Below are positions 3,512-62,600 of a DNA stretch of 64,000 nt, piece after piece (the stretch's first letter is position 1; every line of letters starts with the position of its first letter). The stretch spans positions 32,001 to 96,000 of the forward strand of contig CAXGMD010000002.1 of NCBI GenBank assembly GCA_964010765.1. Reading direction: 5' to 3'. The notes beneath the pieces were generated by a model, which was not told the origin of the DNA, did no database searches, and saw only the letters and a list, made by a program, of their open reading frames with translations. Source of the DNA: an uncultured bacterium (GTDB taxonomy: Bacteria; SAR324; NAC60-12). A program made the translations under genes and the position numbers.

Positions 3512-5041
3512 TTATTTCTGAAAAGCTGAAAAATTTCTTTCGATTCTTCCATCAGGTAAAAAAATTGTTGCGCTGACGCAGTCTAATTTATCCTCAATCT
3601 GGTGGCTGATGTAAAGAATTTGTGTGGTCTTTGATTTACCCAATAAATTAATCTTCTTAATTAATTCTGCTCTTTGATAAGGATCAAGCCCTTGGCAGGG
3701 TTCATCTAGTAATAGAATTTCTGGGGATTTGACCATCGCACGGGCCAATAAAAACAATCGTTGTTGGCCATAGGAAATGTTCAAGAAGGAATTTTCCGCG
3801 ATTTCAAAAAGATCAAATTGGGTTAACCACTTTTCAGCCGTTTCTTTTTGTTTTTCAGAAATAGCTCCATAAAAGCCAATCGAGTCATTGAAGCCAGAGT
3901 AAACAACTTTCCGGCCAGTAACTTTTTTACGATAGTTCATCTGCAGTTCGGGAGTAACCATTCCAATTCGTTTGCGCAGATCCCAAATGTTCTCACCAGA
4001 ACCTCTGCGTTTTCCAAAAATCCAAACCTTGTTGCTGTAAGCTTGTGGGTGTTCCCCTACTATCAACTTTACAAGAGTTGACTTCCCCGAACCATTTGGC
4101 CCAGCAACCTGCCAATGCTCTCCCGGTGGCCATGTCCAAGAAAAATCTTCAAACACCGTGTGACCCTGAAAATAGAGATGCACATTTTCCATTTCAATGG
4201 GTGGCACTGAGGAATCTTCGATTTTTCTAGATTCAGAAACAATAATCTCGCTTTTGAAATTACCTGTGTCTGAGGCCTTGATTTCACTTTTGTAAAGTTT
4301 CTTCAAGTTTGCTTCAGTAAGGACAGCAGAACGCCCCCCTGAAAATTCCATTTTCCCATGCCGCAAACCCATCACATCAGTGATTTCTGGGATCAATTCA
4401 TCCTGACGATGACTCACCAGAATAAGTGATAATTTGGAGTGTTGGACTAACTCTCGGAGCAATGATTTAAAATCCTTGCTGGAATTCTGGTCCAAACCGT
4501 CAAATGGTTCGTCCAGCATCAATAGCTTTGGGAATCGGATCAGGGATTTGAAGAGTAAGAATTTTCGCCATTCCCCATTGGATAATCCACGGATGGGACG
4601 ATCTACTTTTGAGTCCAATTGCATAAGGACAAGCAAGTCCTTACTTTCCTTTTCAGCGAGCATATACTCAGAGAACATGCTTCGAATGGTTTGTTGCTCT
4701 TGCTCCCTTCCACTATACTCTTCCCATCGATCCTTCAGTTTCTCCTGTGCAAGTAGACTCAAAGGTTGATTGAGGTGAACCCAGCCAAGGTGAGTTACGC
4801 CCTGCAATTCAGGATGTCGACGCAATTTTCCCTCACAATAAGCGATTTGTTGGGCCAAAACCCGCAGCATTGTAGACTTCCCTGCCCCGTTTCCGCCCAA
4901 GATTGCCCAATGCTCGCTTTTCGCAAAAGTCCAATCAACTTTTTCCAAAACAATTCTGCCCTGTAGACGAACAGCAATACCTTTCATCTCAAACCAATTG
5001 ATGCTGTCATCTGCTAAATCAGGCATTTTTAGAAACTCCAC
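3512..5041 (-). CDS. ModF-like ABC ATP-binding protein with two ATPase domains
   Basis: Two Walker A motifs (GGNGAGKST, GPNGSGKST), signatures LSNGE and ISYGQ, Walker B LDEP twice, and the ModF-typical HPQAYSN...FGKRRGSGENIWDLRKRIG. Start codon uncertain. Confidence 0.8.
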   Translation of the reverse strand: MEFLKMPDLADDSINWFEMKGIAVRLQGRIVLEKVDWTFAKSEHWAILGGNGAGKSTMLRVLAQQIAYCEGKLRRHPELQGVTHLGWVHLNQPLSLLAQEKLKDRWEEYSGREQEQQTIRSMFSEYMLAEKESKDLLVLMQLDSKVDRPIRGLSNGEWRKFLLFKSLIRFPKLLMLDEPFDGLDQNSSKDFKSLLRELVQHSKLSLILVSHRQDELIPEITDVMGLRHGKMEFSGGRSAVLTEANLKKLYKSEIKASDTGNFKSEIIVSESRKIEDSSVPPIEMENVHLYFQGHTVFEDFSWTWPPGEHWQVAGPNGSGKSTLVKLIVGEHPQAYSNKVWIFGKRRGSGENIWDLRKRIGMVTPELQMNYRKKVTGRKVVYSGFNDSIGFYGAISEKQKETAEKWLTQFDLFEIAENSFLNISYGQQRLFLLARAMVKSPEILLLDEPCQGLDPYQRAELIKKINLLGKSKTTQILYISHQIEDKLDCVSATIFLPDGRIERNFSAFQK

Positions 5042-5282: not shown

Positions 5283-6254
5283 ATGAACTTAAACGAAACA
5301 CAACTACTGCAAGCGTACCGCAAGATGCGTCAGATCCGCGATTTTGAGGATCGAGTCCATGAGGAGTTTGCCACTGGGATTATTCCTGGGTTTGTCCATC
5401 TTTACGCTGGTGAGGAAGCCTCTGCAGTTGGCTTCTGCATGCACCTCAATGACGAAGACCGCATTGCCAGCACTCATAGAGGCCATGGTCACTGCATCGC
5501 CAAGGGGGTAGAGATCAACGGGATGATGTCGGAGATCTTCGGTCGCCGCAATGGCACCTGTGCCGGCAAAGGTGGTTCGATGCATATCGCAGACTTGGAA
5601 AAGGGGATGATGGGGGCCAATGGGATCGTCGGTGCGGGGCCTCCCTTGATCTGTGGAGCGGGCCTAGCAGCCAAGTTCCGCAAGAACGGTGGGGTGGCGA
5701 TCGCCTTTGTAGGCGATGGAGGCTCCAACCAGGGAACGACGATGGAGTCATTGAATCTGGCTTCTGTCTGGAATCTGCCCTGTATCTTTGTGGCTGAGAA
5801 CAACGGCTATGCAGAGGCGACGTCGAGTAAATGGTCGGTTTCCTGTGAGAACATTGCCGACCGTGCGGCAGCCTTTGGGATGCCGGGGGTGGTTGTGGAT
5901 GGGCATGATTTCTTTGCGGTCTATGAGGTAGCTGGCGAAGCGATCAAACGCGCCCGTGAAGGAGGAGGCCCAACATTAGTGGAGTGCAAGATCAACCGCT
6001 ACTACGGTCACTTTGAAGGAGATGCCCAGACGTACCGAACGATTGATGAGGTAAAAAATATCAAGGAGAACAAGGACTGCCTGATGCTCTTTGCCAAGCG
6101 GGTGACCGAGCAGGGTTTGTTGACCCAGGCGCAGTTGGACGCCATTGACAAGGAGGTTGCCGCAGAGATTGAAGCTTCAGTCGTTCATGCGAAGTCTTCA
6201 GCGAAGCCGACAGAGGTAGACCTGCTGACAGACGTATATGTCAGTTATCCTTGA
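5283..6254 (+). CDS. acoA: Acetoin dehydrogenase E1 alpha (TPP-dependent), copy 1
   Basis: GFVHLYAGEEA, STHRGHGH, GKGGSMH, TPP motif GDGGSNQG...ENNGY, RYYGHFEGDAQTYR; RBS GGGGG upstream. Confidence 0.9.
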   Translation: MNLNETQLLQAYRKMRQIRDFEDRVHEEFATGIIPGFVHLYAGEEASAVGFCMHLNDEDRIASTHRGHGHCIAKGVEINGMMSEIFGRRNGTCAGKGGSMHIADLEKGMMGANGIVGAGPPLICGAGLAAKFRKNGGVAIAFVGDGGSNQGTTMESLNLASVWNLPCIFVAENNGYAEATSSKWSVSCENIADRAAAFGMPGVVVDGHDFFAVYEVAGEAIKRAREGGGPTLVECKINRYYGHFEGDAQTYRTIDEVKNIKENKDCLMLFAKRVTEQGLLTQAQLDAIDKEVAAEIEASVVHAKSSAKPTEVDLLTDVYVSYP

Positions 6255-7277
6255 TTGACTCACCCACAAACCAGAGGAGTTAGAGATGGCCAGAATGATT
6301 ACATTCAAGCAATCCATCAATGAGGCCTTGGCCCAGGAGATGGCTCGCGATGAGACAGTGATTGCAATGGGGGAAGATATTGTTGGAGGTATGGGGGGCG
6401 ATGGAGAGATGGACGCCTGGGGTGGAGTGTTTGGCTTCACGAAGGGTCTTCATGGCCAGTTTGGAGACCGCGTGATGGACACGCCAATTACGGAGTCAGC
6501 CTTCATTGGTGCAGCCGCGGGGGCAGCAGCCTGTGGGATGCGTCCGGTGGCGGAGTTGATGTTCATCGACTTCATGGGGGTTTGTTTTGACCAGATCTTC
6601 AACCAGGCGGCGAAGTTCAAGTACATGTTTGGGGGCAAAGCAGAAACACCGATGGTGGTTCGGACGATGATTGGGGGAGGTCTTCGTGCAGCTTCCCAAC
6701 ATTCGCAGTGTCTGTATCCGATCTTTACCCACATTCCTGGTTTGAAGGTGGTGATACCTTCAAATCCATATGATGCGAAGGGTTTGTTGATCCAGGCGAT
6801 CCGGGACAATGATCCGGTGATTTTCTGTGAGCACAAGTCGTTGCACCAGTTGGAGGGAGATGTTCCTGAGACACCGTATGCGATCCCGTTCAACGAAGCG
6901 AATGTGGTACGAGAGGGAGGGGATGTGACAATCGTGGCGATTGGCTTCATGGTGCACCGAGCCATGGAAGCAGCGACAGCATTGGCGAAGGAGGGGATTC
7001 AGTGTGAGGTAATTGATCCACGGACGACTTCGCCGTTGGATTTGGAGACGATCATTGAGAGTGTGGAGAACACGGGTCGCTTGGTGGTGGTGGATGAGTC
7101 GAATCCGCGCTGCAGCATGGCTGCAGACATCAGTGCGCAGGTGACGGAACAGGCCTTTGGTTCATTGAAGGGTCCGGTGAGGATGGTGACGGCACCGCAT
7201 TGTCCACCGCCATTTTCGGATGTGTTGGAGGATCTCTACATGCCAAGTGCAGAGAAAATCGCTGAGGCTGTCAGGTC
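5308..7277 (+). repeat. ~1970 bp direct repeat, copy 1 (acoAB core)
   Basis: Matches 18854-20823 at offset 13546. Proteins and off-frame ORFs in the track are identical in both copies; the boundaries were read by eye. Confidence 0.9.
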
Positions 7278-7287
7278 GCTCAAGTGA
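6286..7287 (+). CDS. acoB: Acetoin dehydrogenase E1 beta, copy 1
   Basis: DAWGGVFG (AcoB-type insertion), DTPITE, RPVAELMF, NQAAKFKYMFGGKA, SQHSQ; RBS GAGGAG. Confidence 0.9.
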   Translation: MARMITFKQSINEALAQEMARDETVIAMGEDIVGGMGGDGEMDAWGGVFGFTKGLHGQFGDRVMDTPITESAFIGAAAGAAACGMRPVAELMFIDFMGVCFDQIFNQAAKFKYMFGGKAETPMVVRTMIGGGLRAASQHSQCLYPIFTHIPGLKVVIPSNPYDAKGLLIQAIRDNDPVIFCEHKSLHQLEGDVPETPYAIPFNEANVVREGGDVTIVAIGFMVHRAMEAATALAKEGIQCEVIDPRTTSPLDLETIIESVENTGRLVVVDESNPRCSMAADISAQVTEQAFGSLKGPVRMVTAPHCPPPFSDVLEDLYMPSAEKIAEAVRSLK

Positions 7288-18828: not shown

Positions 18829-19800
18829 ATGAGCCTGAGTGAATCCAAATTATTGCAAGCGTACCGCAAGATGCGTCAGATCCGCGATTTTGAGGATCGA
18901 GTCCATGAGGAGTTTGCCACTGGGATTATTCCTGGGTTTGTCCATCTTTACGCTGGTGAGGAAGCCTCTGCAGTTGGCTTCTGCATGCACCTCAATGACG
19001 AAGACCGCATTGCCAGCACTCATAGAGGCCATGGTCACTGCATCGCCAAGGGGGTAGAGATCAACGGGATGATGTCGGAGATCTTCGGTCGCCGCAATGG
19101 CACCTGTGCCGGCAAAGGTGGTTCGATGCATATCGCAGACTTGGAAAAGGGGATGATGGGGGCCAATGGGATCGTCGGTGCGGGGCCTCCCTTGATCTGT
19201 GGAGCGGGCCTAGCAGCCAAGTTCCGCAAGAACGGTGGGGTGGCGATCGCCTTTGTAGGCGATGGAGGCTCCAACCAGGGAACGACGATGGAGTCATTGA
19301 ATCTGGCTTCTGTCTGGAATCTGCCCTGTATCTTTGTGGCTGAGAACAACGGCTATGCAGAGGCGACGTCGAGTAAATGGTCGGTTTCCTGTGAGAACAT
19401 TGCCGACCGTGCGGCAGCCTTTGGGATGCCGGGGGTGGTTGTGGATGGGCATGATTTCTTTGCGGTCTATGAGGTAGCTGGCGAAGCGATCAAACGCGCC
19501 CGTGAAGGAGGAGGCCCAACATTAGTGGAGTGCAAGATCAACCGCTACTACGGTCACTTTGAAGGAGATGCCCAGACGTACCGAACGATTGATGAGGTAA
19601 AAAATATCAAGGAGAACAAGGACTGCCTGATGCTCTTTGCCAAGCGGGTGACCGAGCAGGGTTTGTTGACCCAGGCGCAGTTGGACGCCATTGACAAGGA
19701 GGTTGCCGCAGAGATTGAAGCTTCAGTCGTTCATGCGAAGTCTTCAGCGAAGCCGACAGAGGTAGACCTGCTGACAGACGTATATGTCAGTTATCCTTGA
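18829..19800 (+). CDS. acoA: Acetoin dehydrogenase E1 alpha, copy 2
   Basis: Same protein as 5283-6254 except at the N-terminus (MSLSESKL vs MNLNETQL); RBS GGGGAG. Confidence 0.9.
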   Translation: MSLSESKLLQAYRKMRQIRDFEDRVHEEFATGIIPGFVHLYAGEEASAVGFCMHLNDEDRIASTHRGHGHCIAKGVEINGMMSEIFGRRNGTCAGKGGSMHIADLEKGMMGANGIVGAGPPLICGAGLAAKFRKNGGVAIAFVGDGGSNQGTTMESLNLASVWNLPCIFVAENNGYAEATSSKWSVSCENIADRAAAFGMPGVVVDGHDFFAVYEVAGEAIKRAREGGGPTLVECKINRYYGHFEGDAQTYRTIDEVKNIKENKDCLMLFAKRVTEQGLLTQAQLDAIDKEVAAEIEASVVHAKSSAKPTEVDLLTDVYVSYP

Positions 19801-20823
19801 TTGACTCACCCACAAACCAGAGGAGTTAGAGATGGCCAGAATGATTACATTCAAGCAATCCATCAATGAGGCCTTGGCCCAGGAGATGGCTCGCGATGAG
19901 ACAGTGATTGCAATGGGGGAAGATATTGTTGGAGGTATGGGGGGCGATGGAGAGATGGACGCCTGGGGTGGAGTGTTTGGCTTCACGAAGGGTCTTCATG
20001 GCCAGTTTGGAGACCGCGTGATGGACACGCCAATTACGGAGTCAGCCTTCATTGGTGCAGCCGCGGGGGCAGCAGCCTGTGGGATGCGTCCGGTGGCGGA
20101 GTTGATGTTCATCGACTTCATGGGGGTTTGTTTTGACCAGATCTTCAACCAGGCGGCGAAGTTCAAGTACATGTTTGGGGGCAAAGCAGAAACACCGATG
20201 GTGGTTCGGACGATGATTGGGGGAGGTCTTCGTGCAGCTTCCCAACATTCGCAGTGTCTGTATCCGATCTTTACCCACATTCCTGGTTTGAAGGTGGTGA
20301 TACCTTCAAATCCATATGATGCGAAGGGTTTGTTGATCCAGGCGATCCGGGACAATGATCCGGTGATTTTCTGTGAGCACAAGTCGTTGCACCAGTTGGA
20401 GGGAGATGTTCCTGAGACACCGTATGCGATCCCGTTCAACGAAGCGAATGTGGTACGAGAGGGAGGGGATGTGACAATCGTGGCGATTGGCTTCATGGTG
20501 CACCGAGCCATGGAAGCAGCGACAGCATTGGCGAAGGAGGGGATTCAGTGTGAGGTAATTGATCCACGGACGACTTCGCCGTTGGATTTGGAGACGATCA
20601 TTGAGAGTGTGGAGAACACGGGTCGCTTGGTGGTGGTGGATGAGTCGAATCCGCGCTGCAGCATGGCTGCAGACATCAGTGCGCAGGTGACGGAACAGGC
20701 CTTTGGTTCATTGAAGGGTCCGGTGAGGATGGTGACGGCACCGCATTGTCCACCGCCATTTTCGGATGTGTTGGAGGATCTCTACATGCCAAGTGCAGAG
20801 AAAATCGCTGAGGCTGTCAGGTC
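18854..20823 (+). repeat. ~1970 bp direct repeat, copy 2 (acoAB core)
   Basis: Matches 5308-7277. Confidence 0.9.
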
Positions 20824-20833
20824 TCTAAAATAA
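19832..20833 (+). CDS. acoB: Acetoin dehydrogenase E1 beta, copy 2
   Basis: Protein identical to 6286-7287; the last codons are synonymous variants. Confidence 0.9.
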   Translation: MARMITFKQSINEALAQEMARDETVIAMGEDIVGGMGGDGEMDAWGGVFGFTKGLHGQFGDRVMDTPITESAFIGAAAGAAACGMRPVAELMFIDFMGVCFDQIFNQAAKFKYMFGGKAETPMVVRTMIGGGLRAASQHSQCLYPIFTHIPGLKVVIPSNPYDAKGLLIQAIRDNDPVIFCEHKSLHQLEGDVPETPYAIPFNEANVVREGGDVTIVAIGFMVHRAMEAATALAKEGIQCEVIDPRTTSPLDLETIIESVENTGRLVVVDESNPRCSMAADISAQVTEQAFGSLKGPVRMVTAPHCPPPFSDVLEDLYMPSAEKIAEAVRSLK

Positions 20834-57231: not shown

Positions 57232-59516
57232 CCCTTCGATTTGTTCTGAAACAAAGGTTTCAATTTTTCACTGAAGGTTACCGCAACTCCTTCAAGACGA
57301 AGCACACAATTGTTCGATTCATCCAAGAAGACCAAATTGGCAAGCAGTTGAGAGGTTCCTGACAGTTTTTCGTCCTCAATCTTGATCTTGTATTTAGAAC
57401 TTCGGAGAGGAGCGAGAAATGAACCGCTTTCAATCGACAACGGTAGGCTTGGTAAGTTCGTCATTTCACGACCTTTGACTAGCATCGCTTGAAGTCCTGC
57501 ATCCATCAAAAGTGGAGCAAATTGATTCCCAACCCAATTCTTGATTTTCTCAATAGGAACTGGAGGCAGATTCACCTCAAAAGAACTAATCTCGTTCTTT
57601 GACAAAGTTGAGAGGACTTTGAAGTAGTTTTCATGAAAAAGAGTGCCATTTTCATACGCATCAAATTTTGATGGCTCACAAGGAAGGGCAACAATTTGAC
57701 GGGTTGGTTTAGGCGCAGAAGCAGCTAAGAAAACCTCTACTTGATAGTGTTGTTTAGTGAGTGATTTCTTCTTCTGTAAGCTTTGTAAAGCAACACTGAT
57801 TTGAATCGTTCCATCAGATTCGCTTGTAAAACTGCCCTTGATGGTAAAAGAATGTGAGATCTGTTCATCAAATCGGAGTCCCTGAAGAACTTTAAAGTTT
57901 TGAAATTTTTGGACTTTGTAGCCTTGATAGTGATCCTCTGACGCTCTGAGAAGCAAAGCCAGTGCGTAGGTCGCTGGCAGAACAGGAACGCCTCCTATTG
58001 AGTGATTTGTGAAAAGAGTGTTGTCTTCGAGTTTGAGGAAAATCGACTCTTCCCAATTTTCTGCGGAAATGGGTAAATCTTTTCCCCGAATATCGTTACC
58101 AACGACAAAAATTGGTGAAGGAAATTGATCATTGCTTAATGCTGTTTCTGCAAAGAGCTTAGCTCCTTCTCCCCTCGGGATTACTTGAACCCCTCTCTGC
58201 TGAAAAAGTTTTTTCAAATTCTCATCCACCATTCCCCCATCCCAAGGACCCCAATTGTAACTGACCACCTTGATGGTCGGATGCTTTCTGATTAGATCCC
58301 AAGCTATTTGATTGATCGCTTCATTGGCAATTGCGTAATCCGACTGTCCTGGATTTCCGAAAAATCCTGCTCCTGAAGAAAACAACAAGACATGGCTAAG
58401 TTTTGAAGGATCTAGCACTTTCCAAAGATTACGGAATCCGTTGATCTTTGTGCCGTAAACTAGCTCAAAATCCTGAATCGACTTTTGCTCGAGTTTCCGG
58501 TCCGCAAGAACCCCAGCTCCATGAATCAGACCAGTGATCTCTCCATGTTGTTGGATGATTGGCTTAATCGTATCTCCCAATGCACTATGATTGGAGATGT
58601 CTGCTTGAACATAAACAGGAGTTGCCCCCAATTCCTTGAGTTTTTGGATGGTAAAGTTGATCTCTCGGCTTGCTTGAACCTGCTTGATCAAATGATTAAC
58701 TAACTTGGGGGTTGCCTTCTCTCCTTTAGTTTTGAATTCATTCAGGACAGCTTCTTTTAAATCTTTGTCAGGGACTTCGGAAGCCCAGGCTGGCTCCTCT
58801 TCAAGTACAGTCCTTCCCAGTAAAATGAAAGTGTCTGGACTTAGTTTGGCAAGCGCGAGTAGGCAATCTGAGGTAACTCCTTTGGCACCGCCACTAACAA
58901 GCCAAACTCTGGATGAAAGAGGTAGTTCCTGTTGAGATAGTTGCGGGATATGAAGAACTCTTTCGTATTCCCATCTCTGGAGATTTTGATCCCAACCCAC
59001 CTGATTACGGCTCAGATTTGGGTCATTCCATTCCAGCCATAACAATTCAGCAAACTTTGTTGATTCAAAATCTTTATGTAAATCAATAAAGCGCCCATGA
59101 GTAGCGACCCATTCAGCCTGAACGGTTTTTGCCAAAGCAGAAAGGCTTTGAGCAACTTGAAACGATCCATTCTCAAAGGAACCAAGATTTCCAGATCCTT
59201 GAGTTACATATAATACAGGGCCTTCTGTGGCTAACCTACTCTTTATGGCACCAGAAAAAATCAAAGCATGTTGAAGCCAGATATCACCATCATAATCCAG
59301 TTCTTCTTTAGATCCAATCATCCTGGGATGTAACCAGATAACACCTTTGAAAAGCTGGTTACCTTCAAGAATGCTGTTGAGTTCTTCTTTTAGACTCATT
59401 GCATCTTCATGTTGATTCCAATCAATTTGCTTCATAGAAAGAGAATCAATCTTAAAGCCCTTTGATTCCCATAGTTTTTTGATTGCACTTAGATGGTCAG
59501 CATCATTTTCTACCAC
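57228..59516 (-). CDS. pfaA: PfaA C-terminal half (KR plus PKS-type DH); frame open from 59645, probably reached by frameshift
   Basis: VSGGAKGVT, IHGAGVLAD, FSSGAGFFGNPGQSDYAIANE, NWGPWDGGMV, DH motif HSIGGVPVLP, LFH, DAGLQ. No evident RBS before the GTG at 59516. Confidence 0.82.
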   Translation of the reverse strand: MVENDADHLSAIKKLWESKGFKIDSLSMKQIDWNQHEDAMSLKEELNSILEGNQLFKGVIWLHPRMIGSKEELDYDGDIWLQHALIFSGAIKSRLATEGPVLYVTQGSGNLGSFENGSFQVAQSLSALAKTVQAEWVATHGRFIDLHKDFESTKFAELLWLEWNDPNLSRNQVGWDQNLQRWEYERVLHIPQLSQQELPLSSRVWLVSGGAKGVTSDCLLALAKLSPDTFILLGRTVLEEEPAWASEVPDKDLKEAVLNEFKTKGEKATPKLVNHLIKQVQASREINFTIQKLKELGATPVYVQADISNHSALGDTIKPIIQQHGEITGLIHGAGVLADRKLEQKSIQDFELVYGTKINGFRNLWKVLDPSKLSHVLLFSSGAGFFGNPGQSDYAIANEAINQIAWDLIRKHPTIKVVSYNWGPWDGGMVDENLKKLFQQRGVQVIPRGEGAKLFAETALSNDQFPSPIFVVGNDIRGKDLPISAENWEESIFLKLEDNTLFTNHSIGGVPVLPATYALALLLRASEDHYQGYKVQKFQNFKVLQGLRFDEQISHSFTIKGSFTSESDGTIQISVALQSLQKKKSLTKQHYQVEVFLAASAPKPTRQIVALPCEPSKFDAYENGTLFHENYFKVLSTLSKNEISSFEVNLPPVPIEKIKNWVGNQFAPLLMDAGLQAMLVKGREMTNLPSLPLSIESGSFLAPLRSSKYKIKIEDEKLSGTSQLLANLVFLDESNNCVLRLEGVAVTFSEKLKPLFQNKSKG

Positions 59517-59608
59517 TAAGACAGAACCGACTTGTCTGGAGATTTGATGTGGAGGAGGTATCGGAGTGAGGACTGCCCAACCAAGTTCGAGTTGGGTGTC
59601 TTCAGAAT

Positions 59609-62600
59609 TCAGAAGTTTTTTTTTGGAGGATCCGCGGAAAAGGTCTCAAGAATTTCACCAAGTGTTCTACGATCAGATAATTCATCGGCTTGGACTTGCA
59701 GATCTGGAAGGTTTTCTTGCAGAGCACCGAGGATTTCGACTCTTTTGATGGAATCAATGCCGAGGTCAGCCTCGAGATCCATGTTCAATTCCAGCATATC
59801 ATTTGGATAACCAGTCTTCTCTGCGACAATATTCAGGAGAATATCTTGAATGTTGGAGGTTGAATTTTCTGAATCAGATGAGCTTTCGTTATCTGAGAGG
59901 GAAGGATTCGGCTTGGTTTCTTCGGGTTGAAGAATAGTTAAAATCTGTCCCAAAGTTCTTTGCTCGGCTAGTTCATCAGCTTGGACTTGCAGATCTAGAA
60001 GTTTTTCTTGGAGTGCGCCAAGGATTTCAACTCTTTTGATGGAGTCAATGCCAAGGTCAGCTTCTAAGTCCATATCTAGTTCCAACATTTCTGTCGGATA
60101 GCCAGTTTTTTCTGCAACGATTTCAAGGAGTACAAGATGAACTGAGCTTGTGGCACTGGTTGTTTGGGAGGCAGATCTGGTGGATGTTTCAGAGTGTGAG
60201 ACCCTGACTTCAGGTGCAGTCTGAGGTGCCGATATTGTGGTGTTTGATACGGGTAGAGATGGTCTTATGTTTAGTGCTGGTGCGGGAATGAACTCTGTTG
60301 GGGTGGCAAATTTCGGTATCACCTCTGACTTAACTGGAGTTTCTGGTGAAACACTACTTAATGAAGTCATTCTCGGCATTTGGCTAACATTACCTTCAGC
60401 AGTAAGGCCCCATTGCAAGGCGATTTGTGTTTGTTCGCTCTGTCCCTTTAGATATTGTTCGTGAATCTTAAGCGTTTCCTGTTGGTGGTGATGGAACCAT
60501 TGTAGATTTTGTTGAACGCCTGTGGGCAAATCAGTCAACTTACCTTCAGAATCATGGCTAAACTGTTGAAGTACTTGCCAAAAAGCTCGAGCGTATTCCA
60601 TCTGTTGGGCTAGATACTGTTGGTGCGTTCTGAGTACCTCTTGTTGATGCCGGTAGAAGTCCTGGATGGGATGGTAGTTAGACGTGTCTTGATCTTTATT
60701 ATTCACTGGATTGTTCGTCAATGTTTGTGGGGTTGGAGGGGGACTCGTTTTTTCGCTGGTCTTTAAGTTGGGCTTTGCCCCTTCTAACGAATCATTGGGT
60801 TCGTGTGCAGAGGTTCTTTTCAAACTTTGGATTTCGCAATCATTCCCAATGAACTTTGCAAATTCTGACTGGGTTGCCTCACTAACATAGTTGCCCCCAT
60901 GTAATCGGACATTCGCTTTGGAGGGACTGGTCACAAAGGACTGATATTCCCGTTGATGAGGATCTAAATTTGAGAGTGATAAGCCCAAAACCTGGAGTTG
61001 AACATAGGCTTCCCGAAACTGGCGTGAACTCTCTTCTTTTGGATTTGGATTTAATGCAATTGCATAAATCTCTTTGCCTTGGAGGATGTTCTCTGTGAGT
61101 TTTGTTAGCACATTCTTGGGTCCGAATTCGATAAATACACGAGCTCCTGCTTCGTATAAGTTTTCAATTTGTTGTTTGAATCGAACGGACTCCAAAATGT
61201 GCGCTTGCAGCATTTCTTTGATTTTAACCGGTTCTGTAGGATAGGCCTTTGCCGTTTGATTTGAGAATACTGGAACCCTGGCTCTATTGAATTTGCAGCT
61301 TTGGATGGCTTCTGAAAAAGGTTTTTGGGCATGATCCACTAGAGGAGTGTGAAACGCTGCAGAAACGGGGAGTGAGACAACCGAAAACCGCTTTGATTTA
61401 AAGAATGCAAAAGCTTTTTCGATCTGATTTTTGGGTCCAGCGACCACAACTTGCTTGTTCGAATTGAAATTGGCGACTTTCAAATCTGGAAAGTCTTCCA
61501 AGAGTTCCTCAACTGTATCTATCTTGCCCATCACCGCCATCATGGTTCCAGCGTCAAAATCTGGATCATCTGGCGCAGCCATAGCTTTACCTCGTGCTAC
61601 AGCCAATCTGTGATAGTCATTGTCGTTGATTACTCCGGCTGCCCAGAGAGCACTTAATTCACCGAAGCTGTGCCCAGAGGTGAAATCCACTTGTAACCCT
61701 CTTGCTTGCAGCAACCGGAACATTCCTCCACTCAGAGCACCAATCGCAGGTTGAGCATTCTCAGTTTTTTGGAGATGTAGGTTCTGAGTCTCTTCTTCAT
61801 TTTCCTCAAAACTTGAGATGGCAAAGACGAGTTTCGAAAGTGGATCTCTCTCATTTTCTACAAAGATCTGATCCATTTCTTGAAGGTCAGATTGGATTTC
61901 GGGGAATTCAAGGAAAAGCTCTCGACCCATTTGCAGATATTGGGACCCTTGCCCACAAAACAAAGCTGTAACTTTTCCCTCACAATCCAACCCTGACTGC
62001 CGATAGAAAAGACCAGACTTTTGGCTCCATTCAAGGTTTTCAGGTTCTTTTTCCCAAGTAATTAGGGCTTCTTGTAAGGCTTGGATCGATTCTTTAGGGG
62101 AGTCTGATACAAATCCTAATCGGGCATGATCCTTAGCTGGTGGCGTTGCCTGGTTACCCTTTTCTAAGAGATCCTTTTGGCCTATCTGTGGTGTTGAAGA
62201 GAGTTGATTTAATAGGGTATTACACAGTTCTTGGAGTTCTGCCGGATTCTCTGCGGAAAGCAGAACAGGCTGTGGAGCTCGATTCAACCTGTAAGCGGTC
62301 AATTCAGTTTTATGCTCTTCCAAAATAAAATGAAAATTACTTCCACCAAAACCGAAAGCGCTGACACCTGCCCTCCTTGGCTCTGGCCCCCTGATCCAAG
62401 GTCTTGATTGCTTGCAGAAATAGAAGGGAGTTTCGCTTAATCTCAGATCTGGATGGGGAGTTTCCAGTTGATTGAGGGGGGGAAGAATTTTGTGATGAAG
62501 TGAAAGCGCAATTTTTATAAACCCTGCTACACCAGCTGCAGCCTTTGTATGACCAATTTGGGCCTTGACCGTACCCAAGGCAATCTGGTTTCTCTGCTCT

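Follow-up and report, generated by a model that had tools for sequence, protein, structure and literature searches.

The stretch of DNA analyzed here, which we refer to as the window, comprises 64,000 nucleotides of an uncultured bacterium of the SAR324 lineage (contig CAXGMD010000002.1 of assembly GCA_964010765.1) and carries on its minus strand a pfaA-type gene, a type known from polyunsaturated fatty acid (PUFA) synthases, whose coding sequence is divided between two reading frames at a run of nine adenines (A9). The upstream open reading frame (ORF), hereafter the 0 frame, encodes the ketosynthase (KS), the acyltransferase (AT) and two acyl carrier protein (ACP) domains, which Pfam recognizes as KS, AT and two PP-binding matches. 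The ketoreductase (KR) and dehydratase (DH) region follows in the -1 frame (Table 1). The sequence and its relatives make it probable, although far from assured, that the A9 run is a programmed recoding site within a single gene, at which slippage of RNA polymerase would allow a short and a full-length protein to be made from the same DNA.

The junction itself is compact. The 0 frame ends with ...GAT CCT CCA AAA AAA AAC TTC TGA, so that its stop codon is reached 4 nt beyond the end of the run; the third frame is closed within 12 nt, and the -1 frame stays open for 2386 nt. The 0 and -1 frames overlap by 34 nt, and the -1 frame of pfaA is useful only from the A9 run onward. Addition of one A to the run joins the two frames into a fused protein of 1365+3+795 = 2163 aa that reads ...DPPKKKLLNS... 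across the junction. A preliminary description of this DNA, made from the sequence without database searches, had reported the same anatomy (the A9 run, the stops, an overlap of about 34 nt and a fused product of about 2163 aa), and all of these elements are found in the sequence.

The two frames represent the halves of one PfaA-type gene, since the NCBIfam model TIGR02813 (PfaA, 2582 positions, with a cut-off of 1010 bits) matches both of them: the upstream part over model positions 2-1381 with 1544 bits, and the -1 ORF over positions 1811-2581 with 387 bits. The KS-AT-ACPn-KR-DH domain order of the PfaA family model is found across the two frames by TIGR02813 and Pfam, and the break falls in the stretch that links the last ACP to the KR region. 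As regards the dehydratase, an alignment of 11 KR-DH frames (A1) contains the invariant residues H548, G551 and P557 within ...NHSIGGVPVLPAT, which we take to fit the dehydratase motif HxxxGxxxxP; fused relatives have PF14765.

In the mechanism that we favor, unslipped mRNA would be translated into the 1369-aa KS-AT-ACP-ACP protein, which would end two codons past the run. In some of the transcripts, RNA polymerase would slip on the nine A's and add one A, and ordinary translation of the resulting A10 mRNA would proceed into KR-DH and yield the full-length PfaA of about 2163 aa (...DPPKKKLLNSEDT...). We infer that the slip takes place in RNA polymerase and not in the ribosome, and that both products accumulate and are both used. 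We speculate that the split could serve to tune the supply of ACP. The underlying idea of a recoding event that gives rise to a short KS-AT-ACP2 protein and a full-length KS-AT-ACP2-KR-DH enzyme had been put forward in the preliminary description, and it is strongly supported by the comparative data.

These data stem mainly from the window's own phylum, in which 88 genomes were queried with the KR-DH protein. The search returned 54 strong matches in 50 genomes, from which 53 places were parsed; the ACP/KR junction could be read at 49 of them and lay off the contig at the other four, one of which shows an A10 at the contig edge. At 37 of the 49 readable junctions, a run of A9-11 is present and KR-DH is in the -1 frame (A9 in 20, A10 in 13 and A11 in 4 cases). 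This layout occurs in at least 10 genera and two families, at loci with GC contents from 34 to 63%. Seven junctions carry a run of A10-12 with both halves in one frame, and five are in frame and have no run. Three of the latter come from the two genomes in which no copy bears a run, and the remaining two are second copies beside a run-bearing one. A +1 offset was found at none of the 49 readable junctions. An A9-12 run is thus present at 44 of the 49, none of the runs being shorter than 9, and the in-frame runs are on average one A longer than the -1 runs. Conservation of the split, the A-run and the stop in orthologous pfaA loci had been named beforehand as a check on the recoding idea, and these counts bear it out.

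The length of the run varies among relatives while the offset is constant, which suggests that the offset itself is under selection. The same offset is obtained with runs of varying length because the flanking bases differ, and the codon phase of the run varies as well, phases 1, 2 and 3 all being represented. Relatives with the -1 layout have their 0-frame stop 2-33 nt past the end of the run. In the in-frame run-bearing variants, both other frames stop 3-39 nt past the run; slippage there would hence produce a comparable short protein, as it does in Thermus dnaX. AAA accounts for a fraction of 0.30-0.81 of the lysine codons at the 17 loci tallied, which belong to related genomes, so that neither codon usage nor a need for lysine forces an uninterrupted A-run. 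When a maximum-likelihood tree is built from the sequence that follows the run, the -1 and the in-frame run-bearing states are interleaved in it; parsimony counts 5 changes of state, and well-supported branches force at least 2. One apparent extra frame change, in locus L012, proved to be a scaffold gap of N's and involves no second shift.

Homopolymers are prone to error, and the source genome (G000) is a metagenome-assembled genome (MAG) in 266 contigs; both facts would suit the explanation that the split reflects an assembly or sequencing error, or else a recent inactivating indel that turned pfaA into a pseudogene. The contigs that cross the site in the DNA runs X1 and X5 nevertheless carry A9 without any indel. 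The same length is present in a contig of 2241 nt from the RNA library (metatranscriptome) X14, despite 28 other differences from the window. Metagenome contigs were scanned for the two flanks with any 6-14 bases between them; three were recovered, and all three carry A9 and differ from the window by single substitutions. This evidence on run length consists of assembled contigs, not of reads, and contigs can hide rare length variants in DNA or RNA. The agreement between independent contigs nonetheless implies that A9 is not an assembly artefact. The preliminary description had held a homopolymer error or a recent indel to be equally possible. In view of the identical length in six further assemblies or contigs, of a -1 offset kept across two families and also in cyanobacteria, and of a downstream frame that is intact and constrained, this explanation finds no support, and we assign it next to no probability.

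Homopolymer runs are mutable, and changes of run length in the DNA could in principle toggle the production of full-length PfaA within populations, as in a phase-variable (contingency) switch. The repeated changes between the -1 and in-frame states during evolution, with the run kept throughout, and the one additional A that in-frame runs have on average are both compatible with such a switch. All assemblies of the species that were examined, however, agree on A9 (the window, the two DNA runs, the RNA-library contig and the three metagenome contigs), and genus g11 shows the -1 state at each of its 14 junctions that were read. Moreover, in a collection of 5.8 billion proteins, of which 7999 candidates were scored, the best 120 matches listed include no "on" allele of the genus, and the fused homologues among them reach at most 37% identity. 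A permanently "off" frame, finally, would not keep 800 intact and constrained codons. With the state fixed within genera, as in g11, the switch that the preliminary description had offered as an option is unsupported, and it appears very improbable to us.

A further set of observations concerns the point from which the -1 frame is translated. The alignment of the 11 KR-DH frames contains nothing alignable before KKK and becomes conserved from there on, which by itself proves little, given that an A-run is read as lysines in every frame. In the loci listed, the first ATG, GTG or TTG of the -1 frame lies 33 to 199 nt past the run; in many of them it lies beyond a conserved P-x-P-D motif, which is located at +60 to +90 nt where it was matched. 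The position of these start candidates is not conserved, and most of them are not preceded by a Shine-Dalgarno-like motif. In the window, the first such codon is a GTG at 59516 that lacks a Shine-Dalgarno-like motif and lies 34 codons into sequence conserved in the genus, in keeping with the earlier remark that the downstream ORF has no evident ribosome-binding site. Such motifs do precede two neighboring ORFs, AGGAGG in the case of the leader ORF upstream of pfaA and AAGGGA in that of the small ORF126 that follows pfaA. The peptide LLNSEDTQLELGWAVLTPIPPPHQISR is encoded in the -1 frame upstream of any start codon.

Codon-position analysis points in the same direction. Over the first 135 nt past the run, six of six genus groups have their highest nucleotide diversity at third positions of the -1 frame; in g11 the diversity amounts to 0.207, 0.126 and 0.523 at the first, second and third positions, respectively. 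Diversity before the run likewise peaks at third positions, there those of the 0 frame (0.235, 0.122 and 0.464 in g11). Together with the in-frame relatives, which are continuous through the run, the start-codon and third-position data indicate that the functional protein continues from the ACP through KKK into KR-DH.

It is against this background that the absence of any recoding has to be considered. In that case KS-AT-ACP2 and KR-DH would be separate subunits, the latter produced by internal, non-canonical or re-initiation, and the run would be the remnant of a lysine-rich linker. In favor of this view, other cyanobacterial clusters encode free-standing KR proteins of about 590 aa, a genome of the window's genus (G002) has a premature TAA before the run with the KR-DH frame intact, and both the window and genus g11 have a CTG after the run. 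This CTG is, however, absent from g12, from g4, from locus L007 of g2 and from the cyanobacteria, and no conserved ATG, GTG or TTG is found between the opening of the frame and the first conserved residues. Coding constraint on the -1 frame begins directly at the run, upstream of the GTG at 59516, and the in-frame relatives read straight through. Likewise, a need for lysine does not explain a pure A9-12 without any AAG at loci with up to 63% GC. Separate subunits therefore seem improbable to us, although less so than an error or a switch.

Programmed slippage in RNA polymerase, our preferred reading, shares its two products with programmed -1 ribosomal frameshifting, or poly(A) sliding, at A_AAA_AAA or A_AAA_AAC on a uniform A9 mRNA. 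Several features suit the ribosomal version. Both heptamers are present in the 0 frame of the A9 run, as some slippery heptamer is by construction in any run of at least 9, whatever its phase. The offset is exclusively -1, as -1 frameshifting would need, and the contig from the RNA library carries the templated A9. Furthermore, the heptamers recovered in a study of prokaryotic frameshift clusters include both A_AAA_AAA and A_AAA_AAC (PMC3711429).

The downstream hairpin that the preliminary description had proposed as part of the site is indeed present in the predicted minimum-energy fold, but it is not significant (z = -1.33, with 25 of 200 shuffles as stable) and it is not conserved, RNAalifold predicting 0 pairs for a set of 17 diverse junctions. 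Inspection by eye of the 12 nt that precede the run revealed no common Shine-Dalgarno-like motif. A hairpin that is neither significant nor conserved weakens the classical version of -1 ribosomal frameshifting and favors RNA polymerase slippage. Ribosomal frameshifting without stimulators is expected to be of low efficiency, which also counts against it here. Of the hallmarks of -1 ribosomal frameshifting, the X_XXY_YYZ heptamer is present and a conserved stimulator is not. Of the hallmarks of transcriptional slippage, those that can be read from sequence are present, namely a sense run of at least 9, an ORF geometry that permits two products, and cross-species conservation of both the run and the frame relation.

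The length of the run is likewise informative. Seven A's would suffice for the ribosome, yet 44 of 44 runs in the phylum reach at least 9, the length at which RNA polymerase slips. Nine A's or T's slip efficiently (PMC1088944, PMC5009743), and selection against A/T runs in coding sequences becomes evident at about 9 nt in many bacteria (PMC1088944). We favor the polymerase because the run never falls below nine, because no structure is conserved and because the in-frame variants keep the run, and we consider the ribosomal version to be rather unlikely.

Beyond the phylum, the same arrangement is encountered in cyanobacteria. A sample of 151 genomes of one cyanobacterial order contained 8 with a close homologue. 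All four split homologues in this sample have A9 and the -1 offset, the three fused homologues have no run, and the eighth match is a short KR frame of 591 aa, the loci read being the other seven. Two further split loci, from Symploca and Nostoc NMS4, both show A9 and the -1 offset, and the run is in frame at two Nostoc loci and one Thiotrichaceae locus; no cyanobacterial or Thiotrichaceae run that was read is below 9. In the locus L033 of a Symploca sp. MAG, the KR-DH frame is broken again about 250 codons downstream, at 3702-3715, and two TAA lie inside the match. As for PfaA proteins at large, KKK is present in the linker of 2 of the best 120 fused homologues from the protein collection and is therefore no general PfaA feature.

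As a tentative extension, which we regard as possible and not as likely, the A-run might be an old cross-phylum recoding device of a Pfa-like clade that comprises the SAR324-type and cyanobacterial synthases and, in its in-frame form, at least one of Thiotrichaceae. Both products would then be needed, as for TssM, and their ratio would be set by run length and frame state, possibly also by slippage conditions such as temperature. If this holds true, the output of a specialized membrane lipid would be coupled to the dynamics of transcription, with no dedicated regulator.

A number of findings weigh against slippage of RNA polymerase at this site, or at least temper it. To begin with, the A9 sequence alone does not separate RNA-polymerase from ribosomal slippage. 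Across the site there is a single RNA-library contig, and it shows the templated A9, which would still be compatible with slippage in a minority of transcripts. In a second RNA library (X15), the contigs break at 59538-59634 into many short ones with a summed depth of about 100 and with no indel reported; this breakage could reflect a graph bubble caused by run-length variants or one caused by strains. The in-frame and the -1 layouts should differ strongly in their ratio of long to short product unless slippage is very efficient, and layouts with such unlike ratios fit uneasily with a finely tuned ratio. In genome G002 (locus L003, C637), of the same genus, the TAA mentioned above corresponds to a GAA in the window and stands 14 codons (about 45 nt) ahead of the run. 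Either this stop is real and blocks the fusion there, or it stems from an error in the MAG, which is 75% complete and consists of 650 contigs. The stand-alone KR proteins of other cyanobacterial clusters, which have their own start, show in addition that a free KR-DH is possible in principle.

The frequency of such runs calls for similar caution. Genome G000 (3.86 Mb) contains 38 A/T runs of length 9, and 21 of them lie inside a crude ORF map. An A9 within an ORF is therefore commonplace here, and the rarity of the run is no argument; it is the position of this particular run, and its conservation in relatives, that go beyond chance. Of runs of at least 10 there is only one in the 3.86 Mb, a drop past length 9 that is sharper than the decay of about 0.15-0.3 fold per extra base among shorter runs, and this scarcity may result from selection or from the assembly. 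Several other A9 runs of G000 are situated at the starts or ends of ORFs, and further slippage candidates may be among them.

The short ORF immediately upstream of pfaA may act as a translationally coupled leader peptide, judging from its overlap with the pfaA start codon. Between pfaA and a pfaC-like gene lies ORF126, whose product is hydrophobic and membrane-like by eye and has no family match in Pfam or NCBIfam. A PfaD-family enoyl reductase (TIGR02814, 659 bits, cut-off 449) is encoded on another contig (G000:C4:5276-6895, corresponding to L142 1201-2820), so that the synthase genes are either dispersed in genome G000 or separated by the assembly. Neither pfaB nor pfaE was found adjoining the cluster, the rest of the genome not having been searched for them, and the flanks of the cluster consist of unrelated genes. 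Elsewhere in the window, a gene pair encoding proteins of 323 and 333 aa is duplicated, at 5283-7287 and 18829-20833, with the copies 13.5 kb apart and the 323-aa proteins identical at 319 of 323 positions. From their sequence, the 323-aa proteins may be E1 alpha subunits of a thiamine-dependent dehydrogenase.

Table 1. Features of the pfaA locus and its surroundings in the window (positions count from the first nucleotide of the window).
Feature	Position	Strand	Basis
pfaA part 1, 0 frame, KS-AT-ACP-ACP, 1369 aa; short product as encoded in the DNA	63718-59609	minus	ORF, translation, Pfam, NCBIfam
TGA closing the -1 frame upstream of the A9 run	59648-59646	minus	sequence
pfaA part 2, -1 frame, pseudo-KR/KR and DH, 805 open codons	59645-57228	minus	translation, Pfam KR
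A9 run, proposed slippage site, 0 frame CC[A AAA AAA AA]C	59624-59616	minus	sequence
0-frame stop TGA, two codons past the A9 run	59611-59609	minus	sequence
Proposed hairpin	59604-59567	minus	minimum-energy fold
AGGAGG followed by 8-codon leader ORF (MNARIEFF*) that holds a T7 run; its TAA overlaps the pfaA ATG (TAATG)	63753-63718	minus	sequence
ORF126, 126 aa; starts at an ATG that shares bases with the stop codon of KR-DH (ATGA), with AAGGGA ahead of it	57231-56851	minus	sequence
pfaC-like gene, KS, second KS-like domain and two FabA dehydratase domains, 1668 aa	56810-51804	minus	Pfam, NCBIfam

The literature searched yielded no report of recoding for synthases of the PUFA, polyketide or heterocyst-glycolipid (HGL) type. 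The first 300,000 characters of PMC5009743, and the text of PMC3711429 together with two of its supplements, mention no recoding of such a synthase, and one further supplement may list it. If programmed slippage at this run is real, it would be without precedent among the megasynthases of polyketides and fatty acids, with comparative support that is unusually broad and clean. There is also a practical side to it. Gene callers split these loci into two genes, or start the second half at an arbitrary internal codon, and a probable consequence is that the junction is wrong in the domain architectures, biosynthetic cluster counts and heterologous-expression constructs of SAR324-type and cyanobacterial Pfa/HGL-type synthases. 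The site moreover offers a natural system for measuring RNA-polymerase slippage in uncultured marine bacteria, and interrupting the run with AAG, or adding one A to it, would provide a simple handle on the role that the free KS-AT-ACP module plays on its own.

To our knowledge, programmed slippage in cellular genes outside mobile elements is limited to few cases, such as dnaX, mxiE and tssM. Among these, tssM bears a close resemblance to the site described here. Transcriptional frameshifting has been reported for tssM1 of Citrobacter rodentium, which has an A11 run, and for tssM3 of Yersinia pseudotuberculosis; in tssM1, the run precedes a premature stop and gives rise to truncated and full-length variants, both of which are needed, as is their ratio (PMC4256274). 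As in tssM, the poly-A tract of pfaA is situated just ahead of a premature stop in a large multidomain gene, and added A's restore the frame. In contrast to tssM, which belongs to type VI secretion and is experimentally proven, pfaA is the gene of a lipid megasynthase and its site is proposed from sequence comparison. The pfaA site is also conserved far more widely than what is described for tssM, since it extends over two families of the phylum and into cyanobacteria and exists in an in-frame form as well.

The dnaX gene of Thermus thermophilus (PMC5009743, PMC1088944) combines a sense A9 run with nearby stops and yields a long and a short product, in which it matches the in-frame A10-12 variants of pfaA. 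Its DNA encodes the long product, however, whereas the DNA of the window and of the 37 junctions with the -1 layout encodes the short one. In this latter respect pfaA is closer to mxiE of Shigella flexneri, where slippage on a T9 run is needed in order to fuse overlapping ORFs into a longer, functional protein (PMC1088944); unlike pfaA, mxiE is the gene of a small regulator, with a slippage site of narrow distribution. The dnaX gene of Escherichia coli and the IS3-family elements (A_AAA_AAG; PMC5009743) share with pfaA the A-rich heptamer, the -1 shift and the two products, which in their case are made at a fixed ratio. Those sites are, however, equipped with a Shine-Dalgarno-like element and a hairpin or pseudoknot and have a run of 6-7, whereas pfaA has no conserved structure and a run of at least 9.

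Among the PfaA proteins themselves, those of marine gammaproteobacteria such as Psychromonas and Colwellia (L032, L041, L052 and others) resemble the one of the window in their domain order, in their match to the family model, in a pfaC-like neighbor and in the presence of pfaD in the genome. Their pfaA is nevertheless continuous, with 5-7 ACP motifs in the part of the locus considered, and its ACP/KR linker lacks A-runs of at least 7, whereas the window has two ACPs, a split and a run. Altogether, the kind of mechanism is one already known from other systems; what is new is the gene family in which it would operate, the breadth of its conservation and the coexistence of -1 and in-frame forms that both bear the run.

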